Below, one piece after another: positions 1 to 23,522 of a stretch of DNA of 64,000 nt. The stretch spans positions 15,183 through 79,182 of the forward strand of contig JAFXVP010000072.1 in assembly GCA_017524445.1 (NCBI GenBank), in the 5' to 3' direction. The first letter of the stretch is position 1. Every line of letters starts with the position of its first letter. Source of the DNA: Clostridia bacterium. GTDB lineage: Bacteria > Bacillota > Clostridia > Christensenellales > CAG-138. The position numbers and the translations under genes were made by a program. The notes under the pieces were generated by a model. That model searched no databases. It was not told the DNA's origin and saw nothing but the letters and a program-made list of their open reading frames with translations.

Positions 1-455
1 ACGATCCCCGACGGCATCGTGACCGTGATCTTCTGCTTTTTGTCCTCGTCGTGCAGCGCAAGCTCGACCTTCTTCGGCGTTTTCAGGCAGTAATCCTCTG
101 CCTTGCCGTTTTCCACCTTGACCGGCGCGGGCGATTCCGACGTCCAGAAGCTGCCCAGCACGATGGGGCGGTGCGGATTGTTTTCCAGATATCCCAGCAC
201 CACGAGATCGTCCACCTGCGGGAACAGGAAAAGACCGCGCTCCTTTCCTCCCATCGGTGTCATCACGTAGCACCAGTCGGTCAGTTCCTCGTCCGGCGCT
301 CCGATCGGCAGACATTTGACCCGGTTCAGGTTCTGGTCATCCTTGATGTTCTTTACCGTTGCCAGCGTCAGGCTGAAAACGCCGCCCTGCGTGTCCGGAG
401 TGTCGCCGTAGCCGAAGAGCGTTTTCAGTTGATCGCCGATTCCCATGGGGGTCAT
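1..455 (-). CDS. Baseplate central spike, phage gpV / VgrG-like (Afp8-type); 3-prime end cut by window edge
   Basis: Hand translation from ATG at 455 (ATGA overlap with the stop of the upstream gene at 452): MTPMGIGDQLKTLFGYGDTPDTQGGVFSLTLATVKNIKDDQNLNRVKCLPIGAPDEELTDWCYVMTPMGGKERGLFLFPQVDDLVVLGYLENNPHRPIVLGSFW... The FPQVDDLVVLGYLENNPHRPIVLG stretch is the OB-fold signature of gpV/gp5-type spikes. It sits directly after a gpD-like gene. Confidence 0.7.
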   Translation of the reverse strand, partial: MTPMGIGDQLKTLFGYGDTPDTQGGVFSLTLATVKNIKDDQNLNRVKCLPIGAPDEELTDWCYVMTPMGGKERGLFLFPQVDDLVVLGYLENNPHRPIVLGSFWTSESPAPVKVENGKAEDYCLKTPKKVELALHDEDKKQKITVTMPSGI

Positions 456-1549
456 GCTTTTGCTCCTTTCACCTGGAACGAGGTCGTGTAATCGCTGGCG
501 GTAAACTTATGGACGACCTTCGTGAGAAAATACGTGCCGTTCGTAAGCTCGTCACCGCCGTCGATCTTCAGATAGCGACCGGGGATCAGCTCGGGAATTC
601 CGATGCACTCTCCCTCCCCGGAAACAAAGCCCATTGCGATGCTGTTGAGCCGATTCTGCGCCAAAAGCTCGCATTCCTTCTGGGTCCGCACGTATTCGCT
701 GCGTTCGCGAAGCATCGCATCCTTAAGACCGCTGACCCATTCCGCTGCGGTTTTTCCTTCTCCGCCCGTGGTCACTTTCGACGCCGTGCCCTGAATCGCC
801 TTTTGGTTGACGTCACGGCCGAGTATCTCCACCTTGCCGATCTGATGCGCCAGCGAAACCCGCCGTGTAAAGCTGCGAACGCTCTTGTTGATCGTCAGCG
901 TGAGGATCGGCGAGGTCCTGGTCAGCACATTGTCGAAGATCAGCTCGCCGTCGATCGCGAACAGCGACGTTCCGTAGCGTTCCGACATCATCTGCAGAAA
1001 CTTCCAGTCGTCCATCTGCTCCTTGATGATCGGCGTTTCAAAGCCCGTAAGCTGACCTACCTGCATCTTCTTTGCATACCCGGCCGCCACGCTCTTCTGC
1101 AGAATCGATTCCACGATCTGCTTCGGCTGCTTTTCCCCGGCATAGAAGGGCTGACACATATTCATCAGATATCCGAGTCCGTCCAGCCCGTTTACCTTGA
1201 TGTTCGGCGTTCCGTCCTGATCGAATACGAGCGCGTAATCATCGACGTATCCGTAAAACAACTCCGTGCGTGCCTTGCTGTATCCTCCAAGAACCGCGAG
1301 CTTTGCGCCCGGCTTGATCAACGACGACGCATTGTTCTCCCACTTTCTGTTCTTGTAGTCGTACTGCCCTTCGATCGAAAAGGTGCAGCCGCCCACAGCG
1401 CCGCCCGCGGTGATCTCGACCTCAACGCTCGGAATATGGAACTTGCCCTGCGGAAGCTCCTTTCCGTCGACCTGTATCTCAAAGCCCGGCGCGATAAAGT
1501 TATCATGCTTCTTTGCCAGCGAGTCGTAAGTGTATGATCCCTGATCCAT
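452..1549 (-). CDS. Phage late control gene D-like protein (contractile-tail baseplate hub)
   Basis: 365-aa ORF with ATG at 1549 preceded by GGAG. Length and overall pattern match the gpD family. It lies between the LysM tube-initiator and the spike, as in P2 and eCIS loci. Confidence 0.75.
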   Translation of the reverse strand: MDQGSYTYDSLAKKHDNFIAPGFEIQVDGKELPQGKFHIPSVEVEITAGGAVGGCTFSIEGQYDYKNRKWENNASSLIKPGAKLAVLGGYSKARTELFYGYVDDYALVFDQDGTPNIKVNGLDGLGYLMNMCQPFYAGEKQPKQIVESILQKSVAAGYAKKMQVGQLTGFETPIIKEQMDDWKFLQMMSERYGTSLFAIDGELIFDNVLTRTSPILTLTINKSVRSFTRRVSLAHQIGKVEILGRDVNQKAIQGTASKVTTGGEGKTAAEWVSGLKDAMLRERSEYVRTQKECELLAQNRLNSIAMGFVSGEGECIGIPELIPGRYLKIDGGDELTNGTYFLTKVVHKFTASDYTTSFQVKGAKA

Positions 1550-1567
1550 TCTGCACGCTCCGTTCCG

Positions 1568-22984: not shown

Positions 22985-23051
22985 CCGAAAATAAACAATA
23001 TGCGGCGCCGAGGGACGTCCCCCTGCGCCGAACAGGAAAGGAGCTTTTATT

Positions 23052-23522
23052 ATGGATCTGAACACCGTACATCATTCCTTCGCTAAGCTGGAGGATATGC
23101 TTCACGAGCTGGGGATCGAAACCGCCTATATGGAGGGCATTTCCGGACCGCAGATCGGCGACACCCTGCGCATTCTGCTCCCCGTTACCGACGAGGGGCA
23201 TCCCGTTCTGACGGAAGTCATGGTCACCGAATTCACCGACGACCTTGATCTCTTGCACATCTATTCCACCCTGATCGTCCGGTGCGGCGATGATATCGCA
23301 GAGCTGTCTCAAAAGCTCAGCGAATGGAACATCCTCTGTCCCCTCGGCGCATACGGCATCTACGAGGAGGACGACGTGCGCCAGCTCTTCCATAAATATA
23401 CCTTCCCCCTCGACAGAGACGGCACCGGGGATTTTTCCGAACAGGCAATGCTTCTCATCGAGCTTATACACGGCGTGCTGTCGGAGCAGTATCCCTTGTT
23501 CGAAGCATACGCCGCGCACTGA
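23052..23522 (+). CDS. YbjN / type III secretion chaperone-like small acidic protein (second copy of the fold in the locus)
   Basis: 156 aa, RBS AAAGGAG 9 nt upstream. Last gene of the effector operon. The pattern LEDMLHELGIE...LRILLPV...VLTEVMVTEF...LLHIYSTL...LSEWNILCPLGAYGIYEEDD..LFHKYTFPL fits the YbjN-like fold by eye. Confidence 0.45.
   Translation: MDLNTVHHSFAKLEDMLHELGIETAYMEGISGPQIGDTLRILLPVTDEGHPVLTEVMVTEFTDDLDLLHIYSTLIVRCGDDIAELSQKLSEWNILCPLGAYGIYEEDDVRQLFHKYTFPLDRDGTGDFSEQAMLLIELIHGVLSEQYPLFEAYAAH

Follow-up and report, generated by a model that had tools for sequence, protein, structure and literature searches.

At the left end of the 64,000-nucleotide stretch of Clostridia DNA analysed here (hereafter the window), we identified a headless contractile-tail cluster of the contractile injection system (CIS) lineage on the minus strand. 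Next to it, a divergent plus-strand operon encodes five proteins with a DUF4157 domain. Taking all lines of evidence together, we regard it as fairly probable that this region forms the proximal two-thirds of a chromosomal CIS of about 47 kb, which falls into lineage II, resembles subtype IIa within the Bacillota branch, is paired with a divergent operon for polymorphic effectors and has probably lost its AAA+ ATPase. The system is of a known kind, but it is part of a widespread gut lineage that published surveys have left uncounted and that seemingly lacks the usual loading ATPase.

The structural operon and its lineage

An initial annotation of the window had proposed an operon of an extracellular CIS (eCIS) with a sheath, three gp19-type tubes, a LysM-containing tube initiator, a gpD hub and a gpV spike. 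Profile searches confirmed all of them, with significant matches to genes whose boundaries equal those first drawn or differ from them by a few codons. The contractile sheath is encoded by a single Cis2-like gene (7798..9549, minus strand, as are all genes of this operon; PF04984 and PF17482, E 3.7e-22 and 6.9e-19). Downstream of it lie the gene for the main gp19-type inner tube protein (Cis1/5-like; 7277..7756; PF06841 E 1.5e-39; TIGR02241 125.6 bits, above cutoff; CIS5_fam E 1.2e-21) and those for two further gp19-type paralogues, tube 2 (6117..6626; PF06841 E 5.7e-25; TIGR02241; CIS5_fam) and tube 3 (5682..6110; PF06841 E 1.8e-16). In the tube initiator (Afp7/Cis7-like; 1568..2296) a CIS tube domain (PF19266 E 1.6e-30) is followed by LysM (PF01476 E 8e-7). 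VgrG is split: its N-terminal half corresponds to a gp27-like, XkdQ/YqbQ-like baseplate hub of 365 residues (452..1549; NCBIfam profile VgrG_rel, positions 61-352, E 9.5e-15; phrog_52 tail protein E 1.1e-13), its C-terminal half to a gp5-like spike (1..455; PF04717 E 1.6e-19; VgrG_rel positions 367-540, E 2.1e-13). The spike gene is cut by the window edge and could be seen in full, with 263 codons, on a 133-kb ENA contig (L001) that matches the window with 99.97% identity along 11.1 kb.

Compared with solved structures, the sheath was closest to that of the CIS from Halogeometricum borinquense (9EZM, E 1.7e-121), followed by that of the Streptomyces coelicolor CIS (8BKY, 6.5e-111), with weaker matches to Pvc2 (E 1.6e-53), pyocin (1.1e-17) and T4 gp18 (~6e-9). 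The best phage sheath among 50,697 phage genomes reached 38.5% identity over 72% of the length, and IMG/VR contributed 12 weak matches only, versus at least 535 relatives in species genomes, of which one per species was scanned. A scan of all open reading frames (ORFs) of the window and of its leftward extensions revealed no capsid, portal, terminase, integrase or lysis gene. The lack of head genes and the distance to the nearest phage sheath thus uphold the earlier assignment to the eCIS/CIS lineage rather than to a prophage. The cluster encodes the sheath, gp19 tubes, LysM initiator, VgrG-like spike, gp25 and gpJ of the core set described by Chen et al. 2019 (PMC6899500). It also has two copies of afp11 (gpJ) and an afp8 split into gp27 and gp5 ORFs, which the same authors give as hallmarks of subtypes IIa and IIc, and the nearest solved sheath, 9EZM, is the representative of IIa.

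The closest genomes are Oscillospiraceae, in line with the Clostridia-like host assumed initially, and we take the host to be a gut member of this family. The best 80 sheath relatives come from Oscillospiraceae, Butyricicoccus, Flavonifractor, Pseudoflavonifractor, Oscillibacter, Faecalibacterium-like metagenome-assembled genomes, Lachnospiraceae and Anaerotruncus colihominis DSM 17241, and those below 60% identity from further Oscillospiraceae, Brevibacillus, Desulfocucumis and others. Synteny is conserved among the relatives from the first gene of the structural operon, which encodes a REC-like protein, through gpJ. Intact syntenic clusters were present in 57 species-level genomes that form one clade on the sheath tree (clade sheath identity 62-88%), and this intactness argues that the cluster is maintained by selection.

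As the cluster is phage-tail-derived and its layout of chaperone, frameshift and tape measure is phage-like, one may ask if it is a decaying, functionless remnant of a prophage tail. All ORFs, however, are intact and tightly coupled, a consensus promoter is present, head, integrase and lysis genes are missing, and phage collections hold no close relative. Moreover, the synteny is kept across Oscillospiraceae, Lachnospiraceae and other genomes of the clade over the whole range of sheath identities, and we therefore consider a remnant extremely improbable.

The phage-like layout includes a tail-assembly chaperone pair with a -1 frameshift site (6639..7225), located between the genes for the main tube protein and tube 2. 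It consists of a chaperone ORF of 132 codons (6827-7225; phrog_508 E 6.3e-7) and a DUF6760 ORF (6639-6881; PF20546 E 1.9e-16). Reading the sequence directly, we found the slippery heptamer T_TTT_TTA at 6842-6836, in phase and 13 nt before the chaperone stop, together with a -1 ORF of 65 codons. Of 81 related loci, 77 likewise combine a slippery heptamer in phase with a -1 frame that stays open for 63-110 codons. In this branch of CIS, DUF6760 is therefore the apparent 'T' extension of a tail-assembly chaperone of the frameshifted gpG/gpGT type, and a frameshift product is predicted. A literature search returned no mention of DUF6760.

The slot between tube 3 and the initiator is occupied by a hydrophilic protein of 1123 residues (2311..5682) that matched no family and whose putative role as tape measure is deduced from this position. 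It is repeat-rich, as stated initially, containing about eight 'DIPAELTYRE' repeats of 59 or 70 residues (TRF periods of 177 and 210 nt at 3098-4283). Both of its ends are conserved among relatives, and hydrophobic segments are lacking. In 46 loci with conserved sheath and tube the length of the slot protein ranges from 37 residues, i.e. absent, to 2072 residues, with a median of ~1180, which would be odd for a simple length ruler. An apparent reverse-strand gene of 382 codons inside the tape-measure gene of two other assemblies (L002, L003) turned out to be artificial, produced by 100-nt scaffold gaps among the repeats.

Tight coupling by ATGA overlaps, as first described for the operon, was found for gpD/gpV, and tube 3 and the tape-measure gene overlap by TGATG; elsewhere the genes are separated by gaps of 1-96 nt, save one gap of 293 nt that contains a conserved small ORF. 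This ORF is one of four genes between promoter and sheath that had gone unmentioned in the initial annotation. The operon begins with the gene for the stand-alone REC-like protein (133 residues; 11425..11826; PF00072 E 7e-4; weak BtsR/ArcA matches), the BLAST family of which reaches the REC domains of the neighbouring LytTR regulators. On the basis of these matches we discarded it as a candidate for a cap or terminator. It is followed by the gene for a conserved, lineage-specific protein of 361 residues (10338..11423) with matches in 66 loci, both ATPase-plus and ATPase-less. None of 55 orthologues had a Pfam match and the PDB held no sequence match, while the AF2 model is mostly helical (pLDDT 67) and matched no known fold. 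As hhalign also failed to relate it to the cap family of Brevibacillus, this protein was rejected as the missing cap. The translation of the small ORF (~10052..10330) was read directly; its start is uncertain and may lie as far upstream as 10444, overlapping the disordered tail of the upstream gene, and a motif L..LP......L....GN.A...LL is kept in ~40 related loci. The fourth gene codes for a YbjN-like, i.e. type III chaperone-like, protein (9646..10044; hhalign probability 100%, E 4.7e-42 against the L072 family, a member of which matches PF10722 at E 1.1e-6). It is located directly upstream of the sheath gene here and upstream of the ATPase gene in the sister clade.

The distal module and the empty ATPase slots

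The initial annotation had named the DNA left of coordinate 1 as the place to look for baseplate genes, and L001 indeed carries them. The full spike gene is followed there by genes for gp25 (PF04965 E 1.9e-17), two gpJ proteins (PF04865/TIGR02243), a Cis12-like protein and a Cis13-like protein with an N-terminus matching the CIS13 family, and then by a gene for a 242-residue protein and the start of a gene for a HAMP protein. The L001 end matches (83%) the N-terminus of the HAMP protein in three loci (L099-L101) that were obtained in a metagenome scan with the Cis12-like protein and whose proteins are 84-95% identical. In these loci the order on the same strand is HAMP protein (875 residues), MORN-repeat protein (954-988 residues), Pvc16_N cap, a 247-residue protein (p247) and the start of a Cys-rich small ORF. 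The cap (PF14065 E 5.5e-26) is encoded ~6 kb past the fibre gene, p247 is homologous to the product of the gene after the cap in Brevibacillus, and the Cys-rich ORF is 60% identical to an ORF of the Brevibacillus cluster. The Cys-rich ORF, which may resemble PAAR-like DUF4280 proteins, is a candidate PAAR-like gene; a PDB search with it gave no match.

This continuation overturned our interim reading of a system devoid of cap and PAAR. The DUF4255/Pvc16-type cap asked for initially is thus encoded in the syntenic extension of close relatives, the window and L001 ending before it, and is very likely present in this strain. One of the three loci shares a contig of 117,751 bp with a locus of exactly the architecture of the window, comprising genes for sheath, YbjN-like, 358-residue and REC-like proteins and, divergently, a GNAT gene, five DUF4157 genes, a gene for a 156-residue protein and two LytTR regulators, and the whole system therefore spans roughly 47 kb. 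Genes for HAMP, MORN-repeat and p247/p268 proteins and the Cys-rich ORF are conserved accessory genes in Oscillospiraceae and Brevibacillus clusters alike, although at different positions (L099 12432-20595; L078 1-9817).

The AAA+ ATPase had been put forward as the gene that defines an eCIS, yet it was found in neither of the two syntenic slots where relatives carry it. The first slot is directly upstream of the sheath gene. An ATPase of the Pvc15 type with WHD and AAA domains (720-776 residues, motif GPPGTGKT) is encoded there in 20 of 23 loci with a sheath identity below 59%, but in 0 of 57 loci with a sheath identity of at least 62%, and in 49 of these 57 clade loci the gap between YbjN and sheath genes is 79-266 nt. 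The second slot is located between HAMP and cap genes: the order in Brevibacillus is HAMP, ATPase, cap, p268 and sheath, whereas in close relatives of the window the MORN protein gene occupies the HAMP-to-cap position. A hidden Markov model built from 20 ATPases gave no match in six-frame translations of the window, L001 and L099-L103, a reading that ends at the PAAR-like ORF, and no ORF with a Walker-A motif or AAA domain was detected in the same sequences. In a neighbour-joining sheath tree, calculated without support values, the ATPase-less loci are monophyletic and sister to an ATPase-bearing clade of Oscillospiraceae, which suggests that the ATPase was lost once and that a radiation followed. 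That the lineage lost its Pvc15/Afp15-type AAA+ ATPase is likely, but not proven because the DNA read stops at the PAAR-like gene.

The cluster might instead be an ordinary, complete eCIS that has its Pvc15-type ATPase gene just past the PAAR-like gene or at a second locus and loads its cargo like PVC or AlgoCIS. Cap and PAAR-like genes had also seemed absent before they were found 6-8 kb downstream in relatives, illustrating how easily a distal module is missed; split loci are documented for CIS (PMC6899500); and loading of AlgoCIS depends on the ATPase Alg15. We nevertheless judge a complete eCIS unlikely. Both positions at which relatives encode the ATPase are occupied or closed, neither the ~74 kb available from this strain nor the 10 kb that follow the fibre gene in three relatives yielded an ATPase match, and the absence is clade-wide and monophyletic.

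Loss of the ATPase, which we favour, is one of several differences from the Afp/PVC systems (PMC6899500). Like these, the window system is headless and has a sheath, gp19 tubes, a LysM initiator, a VgrG-like spike, gp25, gpJ, Cis12/13-like proteins and, in relatives, a Pvc16-type cap. Unlike these, it has a tape-measure gene and a frameshifted chaperone between tube and initiator, one gene for the sheath, two for gpJ and a spike divided between two ORFs; searches for an Afp15/Pvc15 ATPase were negative, and its effector genes are upstream and divergent, whereas those of Afp/PVC are located at the 3' end. The canonical, so far uncharacterised clusters of Brevibacillus porteri and B. fortis (L078/L079) resemble the window system in their sheath (56% identity), chaperone, cap, p268/p247, HAMP, MORN, PAAR-like and DUF4157 proteins, but they encode a WHD+AAA Pvc15-like ATPase between HAMP and cap and have the accessory module upstream of the sheath gene.

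The divergent DUF4157 effector operon

Structural and effector operons diverge from an AT-rich promoter region of 159 nt (11827..11985) with a GC content of 37.7% vs 60% in its flanks. On the minus strand it contains the sequence TTGACA-16-TATAAT (11887-11860), a 12/12 match to the sigma-70 consensus that faces the structural operon. In the other direction, the ribosome-binding site AAAGGAG precedes an ATG at 11986. Because of this site, and because GNAT orthologues align from residue ~31-36 onward, 11986 is most likely the start of the GNAT acetyltransferase gene (11986..12864; PF00583 E 1.2e-6) that heads the cargo operon on the plus strand.

The GNAT gene is followed by five genes, D1-D5, whose products had been assigned to DUF4157 initially. 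The assignment holds: all five match PF13699, now named 'eCIS_core' in the Pfam copy used, with E 6e-17 to 5e-20, each of them has a HE[ILV]SH motif at about residue 109-118, and the array is divergent from the structural operon. D1 (930 residues; 12919..15711; E 5.2e-20) carries the motif as HELSH and probably starts at M10, i.e. at 12946. D2 (775 residues; 15720..18047; E 6.5e-18) additionally has a weak match to PI3_PI4_kinase (E 0.0047), and the series continues with D3 (332 residues; 18092..19090; E 7.8e-18), D4 (378 residues; 19194..20330; E 5.2e-19) and D5 (868 residues; 20378..22984; E 6.2e-17). The operon ends with the gene for a 156-residue protein (23052..23522).

Alignment of the paralogues demonstrated that D1-D5 share residues 1 to ~170 with 62-74% identity, up to a sharp boundary at a conserved PMQA. 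Beyond it they diverge, except that the C-termini of D1 and D2 are 55% identical and that D3 and D4 are alike up to residue ~244. The AF2 model of D4 resolves the shared module into a disordered leader (1-23) and the DUF4157 fold (24-145), which are connected by a disordered linker (151-169) to a confidently predicted helical C-terminal domain (172-371). Foldseek with this model found no fold match for the C-terminal domain, and D2, D4 and D5 have no sequence matches in the PDB. Model, alignment and conserved adjacency thus agree on proteins made of leader, DUF4157 and a variable C-terminal domain, encoded beside a CIS. These effectors are modular and combine a conserved N-terminal module with diverse C-termini, as polymorphic toxins do.

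The module is widely distributed. A database search returned 684 homologues, 215-650 residues long, most of which match the N-terminal ~170 residues only. Among 1.84 billion representatives (50% clustering) 320 match the module at E<=1e-30, and nearly all matches listed start at residue 1. PF13699 was detected in 125/125 proteins scanned, i.e. the five proteins of the window and 120 homologues, and an ADP-ribosyltransferase toxin domain (ADPrib_exo_Tox, E 1.2e-22) in three of these; beyond those three, no other C-terminal domain was recognised. The array belongs to the cluster: in all 12 relatives with sequence beyond GNAT this gene is followed by at least one DUF4157 gene, and a divergent DUF4157 array with 1-8 copies behind the same GNAT adjoins this sheath clade in at least 17 species. 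An array of several DUF4157 cargo genes is in itself no novelty, as relatives have up to 8 such genes and genomes with many more predicted effectors are on record (PMC11297309).

The 156-residue protein encoded behind D5 has a 73%-identical orthologue in another locus (L108, 12190-15570), again directly after a D5-type gene, the C-terminal domain of which (L108_D949) is 62% identical to that of D5. That the two travel together across species suggests an effector-partner cassette, and the 156-residue protein is a candidate chaperone or immunity protein. Its likeness to YbjN is weak: 4 of 64 homologues have a precomputed PF10722 match, but the protein itself has no Pfam match and hhalign against the clear YbjN-like family of the cluster was negative, so that we rejected it as a clear YbjN homologue. 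In the array of L108 (6961-17197) small genes of 67, 157, 156 and 248 codons are interleaved between the effector genes.

The array also bears on the possibility that the cluster is a cargo-less R-type tailocin that kills by puncturing membranes, with the DUF4157 genes being an unrelated toxin array next to it. Its content is tailocin-like (sheath, tube, G/GT chaperone, a tape-measure slot between tube and baseplate, a fibre, no ATPase), and in one metagenomic census of CIS, clusters of this type are filtered out as R-type bacteriocins (PMC12210884). Pyocin R2 and diffocin likewise are headless contractile tails with tape measure and fibres but no AAA+ ATPase. Their sheaths, however, are distant from the one described here (pyocin E 1.1e-17), they have neither DUF4157 cargo nor a Pvc16-type cap, and they carry lysis genes. 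Sheath, tubes, Cis12/13 and cap place the window cluster by sequence in the CIS lineage and not with pyocin- or diffocin-type tails. Furthermore, the divergent array is kept beside the clade in at least 17 species, and DUF4157 ranks first among domains in its specificity for eCIS neighbourhoods, being almost exclusive to those of CIS (odds ratio 2614, PMC8213781). It marks 36% of known eCIS toxins vs 0.06% of other proteins. We therefore regard a tailocin as improbable.

Proposed action, regulation and significance

We propose that the strong promoter drives one long operon that would extend from the REC-like gene to the spike gene and continue past the window to the cap and a probable PAAR-like tip. 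The particle would assemble on its baseplate with the help of the frameshifted chaperone and the tape-measure-slot protein, and the shared module of leader and DUF4157 would bring each effector to the tube lumen or to the complex of spike and tube initiator. Contraction of the sheath would then expel tube, spike and cargo into a target cell. In the presumed absence of an ATPase, loading would rest on the N-terminal module, perhaps supported by the YbjN-like proteins, and the adjacent LytTR/REC regulators may control expression.

Both destinations of the cargo have precedents. Cgo1/2 of AlgoCIS are built from leader, DUF4157 and C-terminal domain and reside in the tube lumen, where the leader is needed for loading, DUF4157 is dispensable and Alg15 mediates the process (bioRxiv 10.64898/2026.05.27.728243). 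In Streptomyces davawensis a DUF4157 protein was recovered together with proteins of the tip, spike and tube initiator upon purification (PMC11126660). AlgoCIS from Algoriphagus machipongonensis (PMC8894135) thus shares with the window system a disordered leader, DUF4157 and a variable C-terminus, and its paralogous cargo proteins have the leader in common. It differs in being a lineage I eCIS of a Gram-negative host with Alg15-mediated loading and only two cargo proteins, without a GNAT-headed array.

Clues on particle release point in two directions: the Cis13-like fibre favours it, while missing lysis genes and the behaviour of the closest relatives, which are not extracellular, favour the opposite. 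A non-extracellular CIS, whose particles stay in the producer and fire at the membrane upon contact, like a type VI secretion system (T6SS), or internally, with effects on cell death or development as in Streptomyces, would be compatible with the core of our explanation. The two closest characterised sheaths belong to such systems, namely the T6SS-like haloarchaeal CIS and the cytoplasmic Streptomyces CIS; moreover, no holin or endolysin gene was seen in the cluster, and the host is Gram-positive. Against this, the baseplate genes are followed by one for a fibre-like protein of the Cis13 family, whose C-terminus is probably Ig-like, whereas the Streptomyces system lacks typical fibres, and no transmembrane anchor such as CisA or Hbor_38620 was found, with no membrane protein or hydrophobic segment in any cluster protein up to the 242-residue gene. 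On balance we hold this mode of action to be somewhat unlikely.

The two systems nearest by sheath illustrate how far the parallels reach. The CIS of H. borinquense is of subtype IIa, has a Cis11 reported to be closest to Bacillota systems, acts like a T6SS and secretes five DUF4157 proteins in a sheath-dependent manner (PMC11566945). It shares with the window system the closest solved sheath, its lineage II affiliation and the location of DUF4157 genes in and beside the cluster. On the other hand, it is archaeal and plasmid-borne, acts by cell contact and has an ATPase and the membrane anchor Hbor_38620, neither of which was found in the window system. Immunity partners are encoded downstream of some of its DUF4157 toxins, whereas here only D5 has a conserved partner. 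The Streptomyces CIS (CIS-Sc of S. coelicolor, subtype IId, 8BKY, PMC10066040) provide the second-closest solved sheath and likewise occur in a Gram-positive host. Their tape-measure slot, between tube and initiator, is taken by a long disordered protein, and the S. davawensis CIS has a DUF4157-bearing effector associated with spike and initiator. However, they are cytoplasmic, lack typical fibres and need a membrane protein, and their DUF4157 domain sits on the tape-measure-like effector, whereas the window has a separate divergent DUF4157 operon and a Cis13-like fibre gene.

Several points weigh against an injection system that works as outlined. Particle formation, cargo loading and injection are predicted from homology to the systems discussed above, and we infer in the same manner independence from the ATPase, the target, and release as opposed to firing from within the cell. 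Cap, MORN and PAAR-like genes were seen in close relatives only, outside the strain's own sequence, and the gene for an ATPase might lie further out, past the PAAR-like ORF, or at a split locus. As AlgoCIS loads via the AAA+ ATPase Alg15 and DUF4157 is dispensable there, an ATPase-less system may load differently or not at all. The C-terminal domains of the effectors gave marginal Pfam matches only (PI3_PI4_kinase 0.0047, DUF6240 0.001) and no recognisable function, and D1-D4 have no adjacent immunity genes, the gaps of 8-103 nt that follow them containing no ORF. Finally, neither a lysis cassette nor a membrane protein that could account for exit from a Gram-positive cell was found in the cluster.

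The receiver domain at the start of the structural operon is degenerate. A LytTR-family response regulator (23591..24382, minus strand; PF00072 E 5.2e-18; PF04397 E 1.6e-16) is convergent with the cargo operon and is followed by a second LytTR-domain regulator (24276..24950, minus strand, start approximate) that is 83% identical to a 224-residue protein of locus L104 with a precomputed PF04397 match. A LytTR gene adjoins the cluster in 24 related loci, and within the distal module the HAMP protein gene is conserved. In locus L110 (2972-20994) the array of GNAT and eight DUF4157 genes is followed by two LytTR regulators and an AgrC-type kinase (HATPase_c_5). REC/LytTR regulators, AgrC-type kinase and HAMP protein suggest that expression depends on a signal, perhaps on cell density.

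To the right of the array the window consists of ordinary chromosome with genes for LytTR regulators, YkuD, NAD salvage, GAPDH, a PP2C/LytS-type sensor, a non-ribosomal peptide synthetase, a dockerin surface protein and ATP-binding cassette (ABC) exporters. Two unusual sensor fusions (33985-37251) combine 5TMR-LYT with a SpoIIE/PP2C phosphatase and a MatE transporter with HATPase_c_2. The peptide synthetase (2968 residues; 37274-46849, minus strand) has three adenylation and two condensation domains and a terminal reductase, and a 4'-phosphopantetheinyl transferase gene adjoins it. The surface protein (2941 residues; 47513-56338, minus strand) contains Calx-beta, DUF7507 and a C-terminal type I dockerin, and two tandem ABC exporters are encoded downstream of it (56416-60795, minus strand), one with the N-terminal C39 peptidase of bacteriocin-type exporters.

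Clostridial eCIS are already listed in the tables of Geller et al. for Ruminiclostridium cellulolyticum, Oscillibacter valericigenes and Anaerotignum, and the system is therefore not a new kind. The same survey demanded Afp12/13/14/16 in addition to at least 10 core genes with high scores; it gave Flavonifractor 0/3 and Anaerotruncus 0/3, with Pseudoflavonifractor capillosus and an Oscillibacter strain negative as well. Yet close relatives of the present cluster occur in these genera and in dozens of species genomes from Oscillospiraceae and Lachnospiraceae. A metagenome census of 2025 drops clusters with Cis13 and Cis14 but without Cis15 and Cis6 as R-type bacteriocins and assigns human-gut CIS almost entirely to Bacteroidota (PMC12210884). 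Our literature search found no paper linking CIS to Oscillospiraceae in this sense. In its widest form, our explanation would be that a large monophyletic clade of gut Clostridia (Oscillospiraceae, Flavonifractor, Faecalibacterium-like metagenome-assembled genomes, Lachnospiraceae and Anaerotruncus) lost the loading ATPase once, still has a working system, loads hundreds of effectors, nearly all with uncharacterised C-terminal domains, via the 170-residue module of leader and DUF4157 with GNAT and YbjN-like helpers, represents the main injection apparatus of gut Firmicutes and was missed because the censuses filter out clusters lacking the ATPase; in this extended form we put it forward tentatively, as a possibility that falls somewhat short of an even chance.

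If the system is functional, abundant gut Firmicutes would own a protein-delivery system with a large and almost wholly uncharacterised effector pool, in which at least 320 distinct representatives carry this loading module and toxin domains were recognised in only 3 of 125 scanned. That the ATPase seems to be missing would then amount to a natural test of unfoldase-free cargo loading in CIS, which bears on the engineering of delivery vehicles. Cultured members of the group exist, namely Anaerotruncus colihominis DSM 17241 and isolates of Flavonifractor and Pseudoflavonifractor.

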